DNA from: Deltaproteobacteria bacterium
GTDB taxonomy: Bacteria > Myxococcota > B64-G9
Length of the DNA: 64,000 nucleotides
Direction of reading: 5' to 3'
NCBI GenBank assembly: GCA_016935365.1
Contig: JAFGRB010000178.1
Span: 389 to 64,388 of the forward strand
This document shows positions 1 to 15,563 of this stretch, one piece after another (the stretch's first letter is position 1; each line of letters begins with the position of its first letter). The notes beneath the pieces were generated by a model. That model ran no database searches and was not told the DNA's origin. It saw only the letters and a program-made list of their open reading frames with translations. Position numbers and translations under genes: made by a program.

Positions 1-32
1 ATACACCGCCGCTATGACGCGGTCGATGACGA

Positions 33-3151: not shown

Positions 3152-4510
3152 TCAACGCGCCGCCCGGCCGACATTCCATAGCGAGGCGGCCAGCAGCATC
3201 GAAAGAACCGAGCTGCCGATCCAGAAAACGACCGGCAGGCTGAAGTCGTAATGCCGGATCCCACCCGTGAACGTGGTGCCGCTGCCGACCAGGTAGCCCG
3301 AGACCAGCTCCTGGATACCAGCGCCCAGGTAGGAGAAGACCCCGATCATGCCCATGGCCGCCCCGGTGACATGCTTGGGGGTGATGTCGACCGCGAACAG
3401 GCCGCCGAGCACCGCTAAAAGACCGCTCAGGGTGAAGCCGTAGAGCACGAAGCCCAGAGCCATCGCGTAGAAGCTCCTGGCCGGCCCGAAGAAGATGATG
3501 AACAGGGCCGCGATCTCGACCAGGCCGAAGATCAGGGTCAGCGGCGGGCGGCGGGCATCGAAGAAGCGGTCGGAGAGGTAGCCGTATGCTATACAGCCCA
3601 TCGCTCCGGTGACCGTGTTGAGCCCGATCAGCGTACCCGCCTCGATCAGGGTGAACTTGTGGACCTCCTGGAGGTAGAGGATGCCCCAGTTGTTGATGGC
3701 GTAGCGGGTGACGTACATCAGAGAAGAGGAGATTCCGATCACCCAGATGGCGGGCATCTTCAAGATGGACAGCTGGGCCGAGATGGTCGACCTGGACATG
3801 GGCTCGGGCGGTTGGCCGCTCCACTCGGCAACCGGCGGCAGGCCGAGGGTCTCCGGGCGATCCCGGAGACCCAGGTACACGCCCACGGCCACCAGCAGGC
3901 AGGTGATGCCCGGGCCGATGAAGGCCGCGTTCCAGATCGAGATGGCCACCAGGGTCGAGGTCCCGAAGTAGGTCAGGCCTTCCCCGATCGAGTGGGCCGA
4001 CGACCACAGGCCGTACATGGTGCCGCGCTTCTTGCCCGAGAACCACTGGGTGATCGAGACCACCGAGGCCGGCGCCCCGAAGCCCTGGAACCAGCCGTTG
4101 ACCCCCCACAGGACCACCGCCACGAAGACCAGCGTGTTGAGTCCCATGATCAGGTTCAGGCAGGCCGAGACGGCCAGGCCCGCCGGAATGAAGCGGCGCA
4201 CGTTGACCCGGTCGGCCAGAAAGCCGTTGAAGACCTTGCCGGCCCCGTAGCCCCACAGGTAGGCGGCTCCGATCCAGCCCAGCTGCTCGGCGCTGAATAC
4301 CCCGCCGTCGATCAGCGGCTTCTTGACCACCGACAGCCCCAGCCGGCAGGTGTAGGCGAAGCCGTAGCCCAGGGTCAGCGTGATGATCACCGACAGTCGC
4401 GTTCGCCGGTACAGCCTGTCGACCTTCGCGGGATCCTGGATCCGCGGCGCGGCCTGGCCGCGCGCGAAGAATCCCAGCAGTCTCCTGATCGGCGAGCTCG
4501 GCTGAATCAC
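3152..4510 (-). CDS. MFS transporter, organophosphate:Pi antiporter family (GlpT/UhpT-like)
   Basis: 12-TM MFS protein with GlpT-like motifs (LGYGFAY..R, GW.GA.Y..YG.GK...G...DR). Confidence 0.8.
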   Translation of the reverse strand: MIQPSSPIRRLLGFFARGQAAPRIQDPAKVDRLYRRTRLSVIITLTLGYGFAYTCRLGLSVVKKPLIDGGVFSAEQLGWIGAAYLWGYGAGKVFNGFLADRVNVRRFIPAGLAVSACLNLIMGLNTLVFVAVVLWGVNGWFQGFGAPASVVSITQWFSGKKRGTMYGLWSSAHSIGEGLTYFGTSTLVAISIWNAAFIGPGITCLLVAVGVYLGLRDRPETLGLPPVAEWSGQPPEPMSRSTISAQLSILKMPAIWVIGISSSLMYVTRYAINNWGILYLQEVHKFTLIEAGTLIGLNTVTGAMGCIAYGYLSDRFFDARRPPLTLIFGLVEIAALFIIFFGPARSFYAMALGFVLYGFTLSGLLAVLGGLFAVDITPKHVTGAAMGMIGVFSYLGAGIQELVSGYLVGSGTTFTGGIRHYDFSLPVVFWIGSSVLSMLLAASLWNVGRAAR

Positions 4511-4643
4511 GCGGCTACTCTACCCTCGATGGCAGCCAGCCGACAGGAAAAATCCAGATTTCCCACGTCCAGCGTACAGCGCGGATGCCTCGAAAACGGG
4601 GCCAGCTTGCCGAGCACCGTTGCCGCGTGCTAAATTCAGCTCC

Positions 4644-5621
4644 ATGATCCCGCGCATCTGCTGCATGGCCATGGCGATCTGCCTGGCCGCACCCCAGGCC
4701 GCCCCGGCCGAAGAAGCGCCGGCCCGCCCCCGGGTGGCCGTGCTGGACCTGCAGGGCGAGAGCTTCCCGTCCGAGACCCTGGCCACCCTGACCGGCGTGC
4801 TGCTGAGCGGCCTGAGCCAGGGCGGCGGCCTCGACGTCCTGGGCAAGGCCGACCTGGGCCGGATCCTGAGCGTGGACCAGATCAACCAGCTGCTGGGCTG
4901 CGACGCGAACGACGCGCGCTGCACGCTCGAGCGCGGCCGCTTCCTCGGCAACGCCATCCTGGTCTGGGGCTCGGTGGGCCGGGTGGCCGACAAGGCGGTC
5001 GTGACCGTCTCGGCGGTCGACATGCAGGCCGGGCTCGCCATCGGCCGGGCCAGCCGGACCGTGGACGCCGACGACGGCGACGATCTGATCGAGGCCACCG
5101 GCGAGCTGGCGGCCGAGATCCGGGCGCTGCTGGGCCTGGAGTCCGAGGCCACCTGGACGCCCATCATGGCCGTCAGCCTTCGCTACGGCGGCTTCATATC
5201 CGGCTACGTGGGCGGCGAGGACGCCGATCCGGCCACCTACCTGCACGGGATCGAGCTCGAGTTCAACGCCTTCATCATCCCCGAGGTCCCGGTCTACCTC
5301 AAGGTGGGCCTGACCATCGGCGGCGGCGAGACCGGCGTGGTCTTCGTGCCGGCCACAATAGGCGCCAAGTACCGCTTCATCCGCGACTGGCTCACGCCGT
5401 ACATCGGGCTCGGCCTGGGGCTCGAGTTCCTCGACTTCGACAAGGAGAGCGGCAACGCCTTCAGCCTGCACGTCATCGGCGGCCTCGAGATCAACCCCTG
5501 GAAGCGCCTGGGCTTCTGCGTCGACGGCGGCTTCAACTTCAGCCAGTACTTCAACACCGACACCAAGGATCTGAGCCAGATCGGCGGCAAGATCCATGTG
5601 GGCGTCATCTACCGCTTCTGA
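4644..5621 (+). CDS. Outer-membrane beta-barrel protein with an N-terminal CsgG/LpoB-like periplasmic domain
   Basis: Signal peptide; C-terminal amphipathic beta-strands ending ...VIYRF; an alternative ATG lies at 4620. Confidence 0.6.
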   Translation: MIPRICCMAMAICLAAPQAAPAEEAPARPRVAVLDLQGESFPSETLATLTGVLLSGLSQGGGLDVLGKADLGRILSVDQINQLLGCDANDARCTLERGRFLGNAILVWGSVGRVADKAVVTVSAVDMQAGLAIGRASRTVDADDGDDLIEATGELAAEIRALLGLESEATWTPIMAVSLRYGGFISGYVGGEDADPATYLHGIELEFNAFIIPEVPVYLKVGLTIGGGETGVVFVPATIGAKYRFIRDWLTPYIGLGLGLEFLDFDKESGNAFSLHVIGGLEINPWKRLGFCVDGGFNFSQYFNTDTKDLSQIGGKIHVGVIYRF

Positions 5622-11499: not shown

Positions 11500-12531
11500 T
11501 CAGCCGAGGGGCAGGACCCGCCGGGCGATCGTGTAGCCGGCCAGGACCGGCGCGCCGGGCTCCCGGCGGCAGGCGTGCTCCTCGAAGTAGGATGTCGCCA
11601 GGGTCAGCCAGCCGAGGAAGAAGCCGACACCCCCGCAGATCATCCCCCCGCCGTCGCCGCCGCGCGTCGTGCCCGGCTCCGCGACCAGCTCGCACTTGTA
11701 CGGATCCGAGGCGATGAAGAGCCCGAATGCGTTGGGCTGGCGATGGAGGTCCCAGTCGGATTCGAAGCCCTCGGGCGGGCGCTCGAGCTTGCCGCCGGAC
11801 AGGACCCACTGCCTGCGCCAGGCGGCCTCCTCGGGGCTGATGTCGGTCGGGTAACGGTCGCAGGGCGCGTGATCGCCCCAGCGGAACAGGGTCCTGGCCC
11901 CCGCCCCGCAGGCGTGCTCCCACTCTTCGCCCGTGGGAAGCCTGAAGCCCAGCGAGGCGAGCCGGGCCACGACCTCCTCATGCGTGATCGGCTCCTCGGT
12001 CCGCACCGTCACGCCGCCTTCGTCGTCGTAGTCGATGTCGAGGCTCTCGCCTCCCCGGTAGATCCGGACGTGCTGGCCCCGCATGTCGCCCCGCTCATCG
12101 AGCAGCTCGCGCACGCGAGGATCGTCGGAGTCGAGGGTCCTCCATCCCAGCTCGCCGGCCGTCGTCTCCATCAGGAGGGCGGGCAGGACCGCGGTCCTCG
12201 GTCCGAGCGTGACCCTGGCGATGTGCTCTCGGATGTCGAGCTCGATGCCGTACTCCTCTGCGGAGGCCTTCCAGCTGGCCAGCTCCTCGGCCGTGGGCTC
12301 CCACGGCCGGGCTGGATCGAGGCCGAGCTCGACCTCTCCGCCCGGGACCAGCATGAAGCAGGAGTCCCGCCAGTCGAACTCGGCCACCCGGTGCTCCCGT
12401 TCGCCCAGGGAGCAGGTGCGTATCCGCCGGAAGGCGAAGCCGGCAGGCAGCCGGGCAGCCAGGCGCTCTGCCCAGCGTGTGCAGTCCGAAAGCGACATCG
12501 AGCTCCACTCTTCCAGGCTGAGATCGTTCAT
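11500..12531 (-). CDS. FGE-sulfatase (SUMF1)-like domain protein
   Basis: TGEEWEHACGAG...RWGDH resembles the FGE family core; weak match. Confidence 0.5.
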   Translation of the reverse strand: MNDLSLEEWSSMSLSDCTRWAERLAARLPAGFAFRRIRTCSLGEREHRVAEFDWRDSCFMLVPGGEVELGLDPARPWEPTAEELASWKASAEEYGIELDIREHIARVTLGPRTAVLPALLMETTAGELGWRTLDSDDPRVRELLDERGDMRGQHVRIYRGGESLDIDYDDEGGVTVRTEEPITHEEVVARLASLGFRLPTGEEWEHACGAGARTLFRWGDHAPCDRYPTDISPEEAAWRRQWVLSGGKLERPPEGFESDWDLHRQPNAFGLFIASDPYKCELVAEPGTTRGGDGGGMICGGVGFFLGWLTLATSYFEEHACRREPGAPVLAGYTIARRVLPLG

Positions 12532-12631: not shown

Positions 12632-13507
12632 ATGAGCCCGGCAGCCCACAAGGCCCCCGAGCGCGAGGCCAGGCCCTTTCTCAAGTGGGCCGGCGGCAAG
12701 CGCCAGCTCGTACCCAAGCTGCGTAAGCTCGCCCCGGCGCGCTTCGGCACCTACTTCGAGCCCTTCCTGGGCGGCGGGGCGCTGTTCTTCGCCCTGGTCG
12801 GCGACGGCCGCATCCAGAAGCACAAGGCAGTGCTTTCGGACATCAACGCCGAGCTCGTCAAGACCTACGAGGCCATCCGAGACGACGTCGAGGCCGTCAT
12901 CGCCCGGCTGCACGAGCACGACCGCCAGTTCAAGATGCCGGCCGAAGGTCTCGACGCCGACTACTACTACAAGGTCCGCGCCAGCTCGCCGAGATTGGTC
13001 GCCACCAGGGCCGCCCGGATGATCTTCCTCAACCGCACCTGCTTCAACGGGCTCTACCGGGTCAACGCCAGGGGCCAGTTCAACGTGCCGCTCGGCCGCT
13101 ACAAGAACCCGACCATCTGCGACCCGGACAACCTGAAGGCCGTGGCCCGGGCGCTCGAGAAGGCCCAGCTCAGAGAGCAGGGCTATGAGTCGGTCCTCGA
13201 GCGCGCCGCGCGGGGCGATCTGGTCTACTTCGATCCGCCCTACGTGCCCGTGTCGGCCACGGCCAAGTTCGTCTCCTACGGCAAGGACGGCTTCGACATG
13301 CAGGACCAGGAGCGCCTGGCCGGGGTCTTCAGGGCCCTGGCCGAGAAGGGCGTCCAGGTCATGCTGTCGAACTCGGACACCCCCGCCGTCCGGAGGATGT
13401 ACCGCGGCTTCAGGCTGGAGCGGGTCGAGGCGCGCCGCTCGGTCAACTCGCGCAAGGACCGCCGCGGCCCGGTGGGCGAGCTGGTCGTGATGAGCTGGGA
13501 GGGCTGA
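12632..13507 (+). CDS. D12-class N6-adenine DNA methyltransferase (Dam family)
   Basis: FLKWAGGKR and FDPPY motifs. Confidence 0.9.
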   Translation: MSPAAHKAPEREARPFLKWAGGKRQLVPKLRKLAPARFGTYFEPFLGGGALFFALVGDGRIQKHKAVLSDINAELVKTYEAIRDDVEAVIARLHEHDRQFKMPAEGLDADYYYKVRASSPRLVATRAARMIFLNRTCFNGLYRVNARGQFNVPLGRYKNPTICDPDNLKAVARALEKAQLREQGYESVLERAARGDLVYFDPPYVPVSATAKFVSYGKDGFDMQDQERLAGVFRALAEKGVQVMLSNSDTPAVRRMYRGFRLERVEARRSVNSRKDRRGPVGELVVMSWEG

Positions 13508-13902
13508 TGGCCGGACGAGAGACCGCCCCCGCATCCGGCAAGGCGCTCGAGCAGGCCGTGCAGCGGGTGGCCGAGGGGCTCGGGCTGGACTGCGCGTCCC
13601 AGGTCCGCGTGGGGCGCCGGATCTGGGGCGCCGAGCGGCGGATCGACCTGGTGCTGCGCGATCGGCAGAGCGGGCGCCGCCTGGGCCTGGAGTGCAAGTT
13701 CCAGGGCACGGTCGGCTCGGCCGAGGAGAAGATCCCGGCCCTGATCGACGACATCGCCGCCTGGCCGATCGACGGCCTGGTGGTCATCAGCGGGGAGGGC
13801 TTCTCGGCCAACATGAAGGCCTTCCTGCTCTCGACCGGCAAGGTCGTCTACCTCGAGGACCTCGAGATCTGGCTCAGGCTCTACTTCGGAATGGACCTGT
13901 AG
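13507..13902 (+). CDS. Small PD-(D/E)xK-fold nuclease (Hjc/YraN-like); candidate cognate restriction endonuclease
   Basis: IDLVLRD...GLECKF matches the D...(D/E)xK catalytic motif; start overlaps the dam stop (TGATG). Confidence 0.5.
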   Translation: MAGRETAPASGKALEQAVQRVAEGLGLDCASQVRVGRRIWGAERRIDLVLRDRQSGRRLGLECKFQGTVGSAEEKIPALIDDIAAWPIDGLVVISGEGFSANMKAFLLSTGKVVYLEDLEIWLRLYFGMDL

Positions 13903-13959
13903 GTTTTTCCCCGGAAATCGTTCAGGGCAGTGCATCCCCCGTTGTTGCTCGCGATGCGA

Positions 13960-15102
13960 TCAGAGAATCCGATGCGACCAGAGATCGGAAAGGAAATCCT
14001 GGTAAGGGACGATCTCGATACCGCTCGTCCGCCTGCGGCGCGGCTCCCTGCAGACCACGATACGCCGTTGGATCGCATGATCGTCCTGCTGCGTGATGGC
14101 GACCAGACCTCTCAGCTGCCGGTCGTGGACCAGCGTCGAGGACTTCACCTCGATGGCCACCTTTTTCCCGAGGACGAAGTCGACCTCGGCGCCGGTTACA
14201 TCACGCCAGAAATGCAGTCCGTGTCGTCTGGCGAAGTACTGGTGGTAGGCGAAGAGTTCCTGCCATATGAAGTGCTCGAAGGCCTTGCCGAGCATCGGAG
14301 TCTCGGCTGGCACGGAGAAGCTGCCGCTCAGCGCATGAACGACGCCGATGTCGAAGAAGTAGAACTTGCCGCGAGAGATGGCCTTGCGCTTGCCGGTCGT
14401 GCTCAGCGGTGTGAGCATCGTGCCGATGAGCGTATCCTCGAGCACGGAGTAGTACTCGCGGATGGTCCGCGCAGGCACCTGGGCATCGCGCCCCACTCCC
14501 TCGAAGTTCAGGACCTCGCCGTTCCACAGGGCCGCGTGCACGAGAAAGCGTGAAAAGCCCTCGATATTACGGCTGAGCGCTTCCGCCTGGATCTCCTCTT
14601 GCAAGTAGGTCCCGGCATAGCCATGCAACTCCTCCTCCGGTTCGTCGGACAGGTAGACCGGCGGCAGGGAGCCGAACTGGAGCACGCGTTGGAGATCGAA
14701 GTCCTCGATCTCCGGATACACGAACGGCTGCAGGCGGCGTGTCCTGGCCCGCCCCGCCATCAGCGAGGTGTGGGTGCGCTTCAGTTTGCGCGCGCTGCTG
14801 CCGGTGAGCAGGAAGCGGACCCCGGTCTCCTCGATCATGACATGCACCTCGTCCATCAGGACGGGCAGCTTCTGGATCTCGTCGATGACGATCAGCCGAT
14901 CATCGGCCTCAAGCGACTCCCTGATCAGGGCCGGTCGCCTGGAGAGCCTCAGAAAGACATCCGATTTCATGAGATCGTAGACCCTGTGAGGCGGTGCCTG
15001 CTCGCGGATGTAGGCGCTCTTGCCGGTGCGTCGGGGCCCCAGCAAGAGAATGCTGTGCTGCTCGAGTTCCCTCTCGAGGGGGATGATCCTGCGAACGTAC
15101 AT
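13960..15102 (-). CDS. AAA+ ATPase with a DUF4143 C-terminal domain (COG1373)
   Basis: Walker A GPRRTGKS, Walker B LIVIDEIQ; lower GC and weaker GC3 bias than its neighbours. Confidence 0.8.
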   Translation of the reverse strand: MYVRRIIPLERELEQHSILLLGPRRTGKSAYIREQAPPHRVYDLMKSDVFLRLSRRPALIRESLEADDRLIVIDEIQKLPVLMDEVHVMIEETGVRFLLTGSSARKLKRTHTSLMAGRARTRRLQPFVYPEIEDFDLQRVLQFGSLPPVYLSDEPEEELHGYAGTYLQEEIQAEALSRNIEGFSRFLVHAALWNGEVLNFEGVGRDAQVPARTIREYYSVLEDTLIGTMLTPLSTTGKRKAISRGKFYFFDIGVVHALSGSFSVPAETPMLGKAFEHFIWQELFAYHQYFARRHGLHFWRDVTGAEVDFVLGKKVAIEVKSSTLVHDRQLRGLVAITQQDDHAIQRRIVVCREPRRRRTSGIEIVPYQDFLSDLWSHRIL

Positions 15103-15105
15103 GGA

Positions 15106-15166
15106 GCGAGTCTAGTAGAATACCGAATTTTCCGCAACTATGCTGCGGAAAAACCGACTTTTCCCG
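15106..15166. promoter_or_regulatory. Two tandem palindromes TTTTCC(C)GCA-N7-TGCGGAAAA upstream of the AAA+ ATPase gene
   Basis: 15108-15132 and 15139-15164; the second contains the perfect 8-bp-arm palindrome CCGCAGCAgTGCTGCGG; no flanking U-tract. Confidence 0.45.
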
Positions 15167-15242
15167 CAGCAGTGCTGCGGAAAATTGGGATTCCGGGATG
15201 GAACCGAAGCGCTGATAGTATTATAATACGCAAGGATGCCGG

Positions 15243-15563
15243 CTACTTGAGCATCTCCTCGATGGCCTGGACGCGCTTTTTGAGCTTGCGCTTCGGGATG
15301 ACCGCAAAGGCCCCGTCGATACCCATCTCGCCCAGGTAGACGCCGGGCAGCAGGGCGAACTTGATCCAGGCCTCCAGGTGCACCCCGTCCTGGCGCGGCT
15401 CGACCTGGAGGAACTGGGGTCCGAGCATGAGCCCGAGGCCCTTCTTCCACACGCCGGTCTGCTCGTTCTTCTTGAAGCCCTCGGAGACGAGGTACTGCTC
15501 CACTTCCGAGACCGCCTCGTCGACCTTCTTCGACACCTGGATGTCGTTCTGATAGCGGGCCAC
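15243..15563 (-). CDS. Hypothetical 106-aa protein (GTG start)
   Basis: Strong GC3 bias; GGAGG SD 5 nt upstream of the GTG. Confidence 0.55.
   Translation of the reverse strand: MARYQNDIQVSKKVDEAVSEVEQYLVSEGFKKNEQTGVWKKGLGLMLGPQFLQVEPRQDGVHLEAWIKFALLPGVYLGEMGIDGAFAVIPKRKLKKRVQAIEEMLK

Follow-up and report, generated by a model that had tools for sequence, protein, structure and literature searches.

We analysed a 64-kb stretch of DNA (hereafter the window; GC content 68.9%) from a metagenome-assembled genome (MAG) named 'Deltaproteobacteria bacterium'. We found that a gene for a 380-aa ATPase-nuclease, a candidate member of the PDC-S01 family, is preceded by two palindromes, and that this pair is kept upstream of homologous genes with constant phasing. 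Comparison of these loci indicates that the palindromes are likely protein-bound operators in a promoter. We suggest that positions 13903-15242 would be a single-gene cassette carrying its own control region. We give a probability of about 0.5 to a self-regulated promoter-operator cassette with the ATPase-nuclease as its most likely binder. The features of the cassette are:

13960-15102, minus strand: ATPase-nuclease gene, 380 aa; predicted AAA+/STAND-like NTPase, helical domain, winged helix (residues ~183-249) and C-terminal PD-(D/E)XK nuclease
15109-15114, minus strand: -10-like hexamer TAGACT, 6 nt upstream of the ATG, from comparison across 18 loci
15132-15137, minus strand: -35-like hexamer TTGCGG, which forms the right arm of the proximal palindrome as read along the gene, with 17 nt between it and the -10-like hexamer
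15128-15152: proximal palindrome (putative operator), TTTTCCGCA-N7-TGCGGAAAA, core 15132-15148, an exact pattern match with its centre 38 nt upstream of the start codon
15159-15184: distal palindrome (putative operator), TTTTCC(C)GCA-N7-TGCGGAAAA, core 15164-15180, centre 32 bp from the proximal centre

The twin palindromes and their conservation

The proximal palindrome reads TTTTCCGCAACTATGCTGCGGAAAA (15128-15152) and the distal one TTTTCCCGCAGCAGTGCTGCGGAAAA (15159/15160-15184). Each has a 17-bp core, CCGCA-N7-TGCGG, with T4/A4 flanks. A preliminary description of this DNA had reported two palindromes upstream of the ATPase gene; they exist, at sites ~20 nt from the coordinates it gave (15108-15132 and 15139-15164). 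The palindrome pattern matched twice in the window, versus 0.01 matches expected from shuffles, and the full pattern occurred nowhere else in the 64 kb. Two more single exact matches to the core alone were present in the window (39905 and 41957). With one mismatch allowed, the core matched 14 times in the window versus 8.8 +/- 3 expected, which is not significant.

We compared homologous loci drawn from assemblies (L001-L005), JGI metagenomes (L006-L029) and a pattern scan of GTDB genomes (L030-L120). Sites were scored as CCGCA-N7-TGCGG with up to two arm mismatches. Two upstream palindromes were kept in homologues at 42-78% identity, in unrelated neighbourhoods. Homologues at 73-78% identity, for example, adjoin PGI, a DEAD helicase, or UbiA and FAD synthetase, and each has two palindromes just before its start codon. 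Within the group of loci with CCGCA arms, the spacing from centre to centre was 32 bp in all two-site loci (19/19), and 37-39 nt separated the proximal centre from the start codon downstream of it in 16 of 20 loci. A spacing of 32 bp is three helical turns, and therefore both sites face the same side of the DNA. The hosts of the cassette include Myxococcota-like bacteria, Spirochaetia, Oligoflexales, Acidobacteriota, Verrucomicrobiota and a chlamydial plasmid.

The arms differ in other subfamilies of the ATPase, with both halves altered together (compensatory changes):

L018: arms CGGCAAC-TTA-GTTGCCG (twice), spacing 31 bp
L022: arms CGAC-TTA/TAA-GTCG, spacing 31 bp
L014: arms GTGGCA/TGCCAC, spacing 30.5 bp
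L122 (Simkania plasmid pSn): arms TGGA...TCCA, spacing 51.5 bp
L092 and L117 (a distant subfamily): arms CGCAAT-N5-ATTGCG, spacing 22 bp

These spacings approximate whole numbers of helical turns (two, three or five), which would be the signature of a protein oligomer on one face of the duplex.

Several loci had variants of this arrangement. The Akkermansia-type loci L092 (2425-2475 and 2614-2662) and L117 (5675-5720 and 5775-5822) each have four palindromes in two adjacent pairs, 22 bp from centre to centre within each pair; in L092 the pairs lie upstream of a separate promoter, TTTACA-17-CATAAT. L094 has perfect twin sites ahead of an ATPase that lacks the first ~136 residues. Two Spirochaetia genomes share an upstream flank together with the twin palindromes (L084:4931-4990 and L108:6940-7030). 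The L108 sequence runs into the ATPase gene, and L084 has no detectable ATPase open reading frame (ORF); it may be a solo operator pair left by gene loss.

The exact palindrome also occurs away from the ATPase gene. A scan of GTDB genomes with the exact 18-base pattern gave 91 matches, and 13 of these, all twin sites, were directly upstream of a DUF4143 gene. Most genomes had one or two exact matches. The majority of the other matches were a coding motif, terminators or isolated chance occurrences: approximately 12 of the 91 encoded FPQC(V/I)CGK, and four were long bidirectional terminators in Mogibacterium-like genomes. The coding source is TTT CCG CAG TGT GTG TGC GGA AAA (FPQCVCGK), a Cys-rich motif of an unrelated protein (L030, L057, L058, L078, L087, L089, L095, L098, L101 and others), and is a source of false positives for scans with the exact palindrome pattern. 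Phased copies outside the ATPase cassettes precede an RNA-ligase gene (see below).

We rejected the possibility that either palindrome is an intrinsic terminator. No canonical U-tract follows either hairpin, in agreement with the preliminary description, and A-runs follow both hairpins on both strands. A terminator scan returned one weak terminator-like site, on the minus strand, with a T-run 6 nt past the stem that is the left flank of the next palindrome. The proposal that the palindromes are operators and not terminators has held up: they are kept upstream of ATPases in unrelated contexts, their 32-bp phasing is fixed, and the proximal site overlaps a -35-like hexamer.

A predicted promoter and its possible regulator

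We recognised a putative ATPase promoter solely by comparison across loci. Eighteen loci share the arrangement TTGC[GC][GT]-16..18-[TC]AnnnT-5..7-start, where the start is ATG or GTG, and the sequence between and around the hexamers is not conserved. The layout in the window is TTGCGG (15137-15132) - 17 nt - TAGACT (15114-15109) - CGCTCC - ATG (15102). The right arm of the proximal palindrome is TTGCGG in these loci, except for TTGCGT or TTGCCG in two of the 18. The start codon appears well placed because the N-termini of homologues align from residue 1. None of the 18 loci has a Shine-Dalgarno sequence before the ATPase start codon. A TAnnnT hexamer lies 5-7 nt before a start codon with no Shine-Dalgarno sequence, and we therefore predict a leaderless mRNA. 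The simplest reading is a sigma-70-type promoter, with a transcript that would begin at the start codon and one operator placed on the -35. A sister subfamily (L008-L012) has TTGCGT-18-CATAAT followed by a GGAGG leader, and its repeats are still 32 nt apart.

The element might instead act as a nucleic-acid structure, that is, as a hairpin or alternative-pairing switch in a 5' untranslated region, as an insulator against read-through from upstream, or as a cruciform for the nuclease. The 73-nt region can form one long hairpin (-25.3 kcal/mol as DNA, z -8.1; z -6.7 as RNA), an inverted repeat with 31-nt arms and 84% complementarity. Such a hairpin is inevitable because two tandem palindromes share arms. 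In five loci (L003, L013, L094, L103 and L054), site 2 is identical to the reverse complement of site 1, even in the N7 centre. In other loci, however, the N7 centres are direct copies or unrelated, and this variation means that conservation does not extend to the long inverted repeat. The compensatory arm changes between subfamilies would also suit a structure, as would the inner-arm mismatches of proximal sites, which are mostly G.T; transitions at positions facing the fixed TTGCGG account for this bias. We considered the asymmetry between G.U and A.C as a test for RNA pairing and rejected it, as a bias towards transitions across from the fixed -35 arm confounds it. Distal sites accept T.T, A.A and C.A at inner positions. 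In addition, the predicted geometry of the -35, the -10 and the start leaves both sites upstream of the transcript. The exact phasing (32 bp, or 22, 31 or 52) and the constant distance from the start codon reflect constraints on DNA faces, for which an RNA hairpin has no need. The absence of a U-tract after the palindrome hairpins also counts against a structural role, and a scan of 12-17 kb against Rfam 15 (E<=1) yielded only sub-threshold noise (miRNA models at 23-24 bits versus thresholds of 80-94). Based on these results, we consider a structural role improbable.

If the palindromes are operators, an oligomeric protein would bind the pair cooperatively and thereby determine how strongly a potentially toxic nuclease is expressed. 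With the proximal site occupied, RNA polymerase would be blocked. The role of the distal site would be to assist in recruiting the protein, or to activate transcription when the protein concentration is low. The binder would most likely be the ATPase-nuclease itself, acting through its winged helix (autoregulation).

The ATPase-nuclease is encoded, in the ORF map, at 13960-15102 on the minus strand. It matched AAA_14 (PF13173, 4.7e-17, residues 16-132) and DUF4143 (PF13635, 5.2e-28, residues 169-322) in Pfam, and seven PDC-S01 hidden Markov models in PADLOC, the best being PDLC04790 (1e-49). A PADLOC search, suggested earlier as a check for defence genes, thus places it as a candidate PDC-S01 protein. 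PDC-S01 has been described as a fusion of an ATPase and a PD-(D/E)XK domain and as the fourth commonest 'defence' call in prokaryotes, and its validation is pending (PMC12988326). We regard the ATPase as a candidate defence protein, with a defence role predicted from family membership. More than 7,900 homologues scored below 1e-10. A search of NCBIfam gave no match, and there was no sequence-level match among PDB chains.

We found that the residues expected of both activities are conserved. In alignments of 49 and 55 homologues, the Walker A residues G22, G27 and K28 (motif G22-K28) and the Walker B residues D74 and E75 are invariant. So are the nuclease residues E276, E282, D308 and E318-x-K320. 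This intact PD-(D/E)XK motif bears out the earlier view of DUF4143 as a restriction-endonuclease-like fold. In an AlphaFold2 model (pLDDT 89, pTM 0.91), the predicted order of domains is nucleotide-binding, helical, winged helix and alpha/beta nuclease. The winged helix, predicted with high confidence at residues 183-249, would consist of helices at 183-192, 200-207 and 211-223 followed by a beta wing.

The ATPase family is present on many plasmids. The family is not one of phage genes, since a scan of IMG/VR found a single distant locus. Among plasmid-borne homologues, the closest one (41% identity) is on Simkania negevensis plasmid pSn (L122, 17667-18842), a conjugative plasmid on which the gene sits between two site-specific integrase genes. 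Tandem DUF4143 ATPase paralogues occur in L028 (at 3003 and 4342) and L021 (at 256 and 3546), and each copy has its own distinct upstream palindromes; one example in L021 is a palindrome with 21-bp arms and a copy with 14-bp arms, 74 bp apart. Antisense to the ATPase coding sequence (14134-14188, plus strand) there is a sub-threshold match to the Guanidine-II riboswitch (23.4 bits versus a gathering threshold of 32, E 0.13), which is almost certainly due to chance.

We take the ATPase to be the most likely binder because the cassette moves without any other conserved gene and because the arms change between ATPase subfamilies. No flanking ORF recurs among 16 loci of the CCGCA group, except in two syntenic Myxococcales genomes (L074 and L118). 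The sole protein that constantly accompanies the twin sites is the ATPase-nuclease, with its predicted winged helix. The third helix of this domain is a near-invariant PARTIREYY in the CCGCA group. Where the arms differ, it reads PPRTIENYI (L018), APSTVRDYY (L022), PPRTIIEYF (L008-12) or DDKTIKEYF (Simkania). The correlation between arms and third helix is suggestive and would fit autoregulation. On the compared sequences, the odds that the ATPase itself is the binder are roughly even.

Several observations weigh against a self-regulated promoter. A consensus promoter scan does not call the ATPase promoter (3/6 matches at the -35 and 4/6 at the -10). The third helix in L092 and L117 is different (SPNTAKAWI), yet their arms are similar (CGCAAT/ATTGCG). 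The correlation between arm and helix is confounded by phylogeny, and the winged helix of the ATPase sits in a STAND-like module, where such domains often serve oligomerisation. Finally, phased palindromes precede an RNA-ligase gene (PF09414 and PF21189; PHA02142 OB-fold and RNA_ligase) in four Acidobacteriota MAGs, with two or three sites 31-32 bp apart:

L037:4272-4360 (32 + 32 bp)
L075:3640-3730 (32 + 32 bp)
L054:3975-4035
L099:3753-3815

The 8 kb of sequence covered at each of these four loci contain no DUF4143 ATPase. Often a gene for an S-adenosylmethionine-dependent methyltransferase is divergent from the RNA-ligase gene. At a Vicinamibacteria locus (L032), one pair of twin sites belongs to the ATPase and another pair lies 1 kb away, which can be read as the ATPase acting in trans or as the mark of a separate factor.

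Phased sites before an RNA-ligase gene that no ATPase adjoins make a regulon, or a separate trans-acting factor, possible. According to the second of these readings, the operators would serve a transcription factor encoded elsewhere, with a small regulon of PDC-S01 genes and the acidobacterial RNA ligase, and the ATPase would not bind its own promoter. The sites phased at 32 + 32 bp (L037 and L075) or at 31-32 bp (L054, L099 and L032), whether before the RNA-ligase gene or 1 kb from an ATPase, fit such a factor. So do the similar arms of L092 and L117 despite their different third helix, and the place of the winged helix in a STAND-like module. However, an unlinked factor would be needed in all of the diverse hosts, and the cassettes have no conserved neighbour. 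Furthermore, the arms vary by ATPase subfamily and not by host phylum, and the second pair in L032 also fits an ATPase acting in trans. We regard a separate factor as somewhat unlikely, and autoregulation by the ATPase-nuclease as the better account of the cassette.

A variable slot among resident genes

The genes that flank the cassette are:

12632-13507, plus strand: Dam-family N6-adenine methyltransferase (MTase), 291 aa (TIGR00571, 1.8e-85)
13507-13902, plus strand: PDDEXK_11 nuclease-like ORF, 131 aa (PDDEXK_11, 1.2e-19), overlapping the MTase gene by one base
15243-15563, minus strand: 106-aa conserved hypothetical protein with a GTG start, a neighbour and not part of the cassette

We found that only the ATPase cassette (1.3 kb) is variable, and that the MTase/nuclease pair is resident, like the small ORF. 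A contig of a related MAG (L124) aligns collinearly with the window, with a nucleotide identity of 70-77%. Its gene order is a 556-aa protein, a small ORF, a 317-aa ORF that belongs to no family, PDDEXK_11, Dam MTase, Zn_dep_PLPC and UDG. The small ORF is syntenic with the 106-aa ORF (77% nucleotide identity), and the MTase/PDDEXK_11 pair is in the same position (4055-5344, 70% nucleotide identity). Homology between the window and L124 ends at 15256 and resumes at 13874, so that the break in synteny coincides with the cassette. The palindromes and the ATPase segment are replaced in L124 by the unrelated 317-aa gene. A second indel is an FGE-sulfatase-like ORF (343 aa, 11500-12531) between the MTase gene and the Zn_dep_PLPC homologue, which is absent from L124. 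A 15-nt direct repeat spans the ATPase stop codon (13952-13966 and 13970-13984; CGATGCGATCAGAGA and CGATGCGACCAGAGA, 18-nt spacing); it may have arisen by slippage, or else be the scar of a junction.

The preliminary description had proposed that the ATPase gene was acquired horizontally and that 12.6-15.6 kb formed a defence island, perhaps a single insertion. The first proposal stands in so far as the cassette is variable and its slot in L124 holds another gene. Since the MTase/PDDEXK_11 pair and the small ORF are syntenic in L124, the 12.6-15.6 kb region was not inserted as a single island; at most, there is a variable slot beside a resident MTase-nuclease pair. The argument from base composition is weak. 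The ATPase gene does have a lower GC content (0.621 versus 0.689 for the window) and a lower GC content at third codon positions (GC3; 0.833 versus a mean of 0.891 +/- 0.051 for 39 long ORFs in the window), as had been described. The dip in GC3 is modest (z ~ -1.1, approximately 1 SD) and several ORFs in the window are lower still; we rejected GC3 as evidence of horizontal transfer.

The positions of the 380-aa ATPase gene and the 106-aa GTG-start ORF were as first described, and so were the good ribosome-binding site (AGGAGG) and the high GC3 (0.944) of the smaller one. Contrary to the earlier suggestion, this ORF does not belong to a module with the ATPase. It is a member of an independent family (47 homologues of ~107 aa), and its homologues occur without any DUF4143 gene in L124, L125 and L126. 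It had no match in Pfam, NCBIfam or PADLOC, and none to a helix-turn-helix (HTH) family. In L126 (3363-4544 and 2717-3097), the homologue is beside AAA_15/AAA_21 ATPase fragments and a DUF4276 gene. Defence-like ATPases may repeatedly land in the surroundings of the 106-aa gene.

The MTase and the PDDEXK_11 ORF do adjoin the ATPase gene, as reported. The best PADLOC match of the MTase is an 'orphan MTase' model, with type II scoring equally well. The 131-aa PDDEXK_11 ORF carries a D...ExK motif and had no match to restriction endonucleases in PADLOC, none in PDB and none among plasmids (tblastn). The two could be a compact restriction-modification (R-M) pair or a methyl-directed nicking pair. 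A MYXO-CTERM protein is also encoded nearby (NCBIfam search).

Directly past the stop codon of the PDDEXK_11 ORF lies GGTTTTTCCCCGGAAATCG (13902-13920). It resembles the T5CC...GGAAA flanks of the operators without the core, and a repeat search found it complementary to 15147-15158. The resemblance may be due to chance.

The variable slot might also indicate that the palindromes are the ends, or the recombination sites, of a mobile element bearing the ATPase, or else generic intergenic repeats like repetitive extragenic palindromic (REP) sequences. The presence of the family on many plasmids, and beside integrases on Simkania pSn, would fit mobility. A GGTTTTTCC motif is also found at the far end of the cassette (13902-13910), and L084 retains twin sites without an ATPase. 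However, no repeat is conserved downstream of the ATPase stop codon in 25 loci, no target-site duplication was found, and the direct and inverted repeats that flank the cassette are unconvincing as insertion scars. Among the compared loci, a transposase or integrase is conserved nowhere. The palindromes keep a fixed position relative to the start codon. The 64 kb contain just two complete copies with T4/A4 flanks and most genomes have one or two exact matches, which is not the abundance of REP-like repeats. We rejected a transposon or insertion sequence with terminal inverted repeats, as there are no end repeats, no target duplication and no conserved transposase, and we consider any origin of the palindromes as mobile ends or generic repeats very improbable.

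Relation to known systems and significance

The functionally closest known circuit to the ATPase cassette is the control of R-M genes by C proteins bound at C-boxes (C.PvuII, C.AhdI and C.Esp1396I). Operators of C-protein R-M systems have two sites, of which the proximal one lies on the -35 and is repressive; the mRNA is leaderless, and expression of the nuclease is delayed and limited (PMC2175313, PMC2632904). Like these units, the ATPase cassette has two palindromic operators upstream of a nuclease transcription unit, with the proximal one over the -35 (predicted hexamers here), a predicted leaderless mRNA, and carriage on mobile genes. By analogy, it would likewise give delayed, self-limited expression of a toxic nuclease.

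The ATPase cassette is not a member of the C-protein family, as it has no C protein and differs in motif and spacing. The C-box consensus is GACT-N3-AGTC-N4-GACT-N3-AGTC (PMC2175313). C-boxes have centres ~15 bp apart and stop 17-18 nt short of the start codon, whereas the sites of the cassette read CCGCA-N7-TGCGG, have a spacing of 32 bp, and stop 25-29 nt short of it. There is a recognisable -10 in the cassette, and C promoters usually do without one. No small HTH (XRE-type) C protein is encoded in the cassette: the first ORF past the sites is the 380-aa ATPase, and it has no conserved neighbour.

Two other kinds of protein offer partial comparisons. The 31-32-bp phasing recalls the NrdR boxes of oligomerising nucleotide-sensing regulators; the likeness is one of geometry only, and the motifs and proteins are unrelated. 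An AAA+ protein with an HTH or winged HTH domain and repeats beside its own gene recalls DnaA and Orc1/Cdc6, again in geometry only. The ATPase differs from STAND/AAA+ NTPases with effectors (Avs, CED-4/NLR) and from the archaeal Walker ATPases PABY2304 and SSO1545 in that it has only 380 aa, no repeat or sensor domain, and a C-terminal nuclease.

The ATPase has the same AAA_14 and DUF4143 (COG1373) architecture as PDC-S01. We found no description of a PDC-S01 promoter or of phased palindromes in the literature searched. The phased, promoter-embedded operator pair is a hallmark of an abundant family of defence candidates and a variant, not described in that literature, of a regulatory logic already known.

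A broader notion, which we consider unlikely, is that PDC-S01 proteins are sequence-specific DNA-binding ATPase-nucleases. The specificity of their winged helix for phased CCGCA-N7-TGCGG palindromes would govern expression from their own leaderless promoter and would operate elsewhere too, either in the control of other genes (e.g., the acidobacterial RNA ligase) or in guiding the ATP-dependent cleavage of foreign DNA with phased sites. If this were true, PDC-S01 would be a single-polypeptide hybrid of a controller protein and a restriction-like effector, in a highly abundant 'defence' family.

The conserved cis-element is the first concrete handle on PDC-S01, a family without an assigned mechanism (PMC12988326). 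It predicts the DNA sequence that is recognised by some protein, probably the ATPase-nuclease itself. It also predicts a tight self-limitation of a toxic nuclease, which would resemble that achieved by C proteins and would do without a separate controller.

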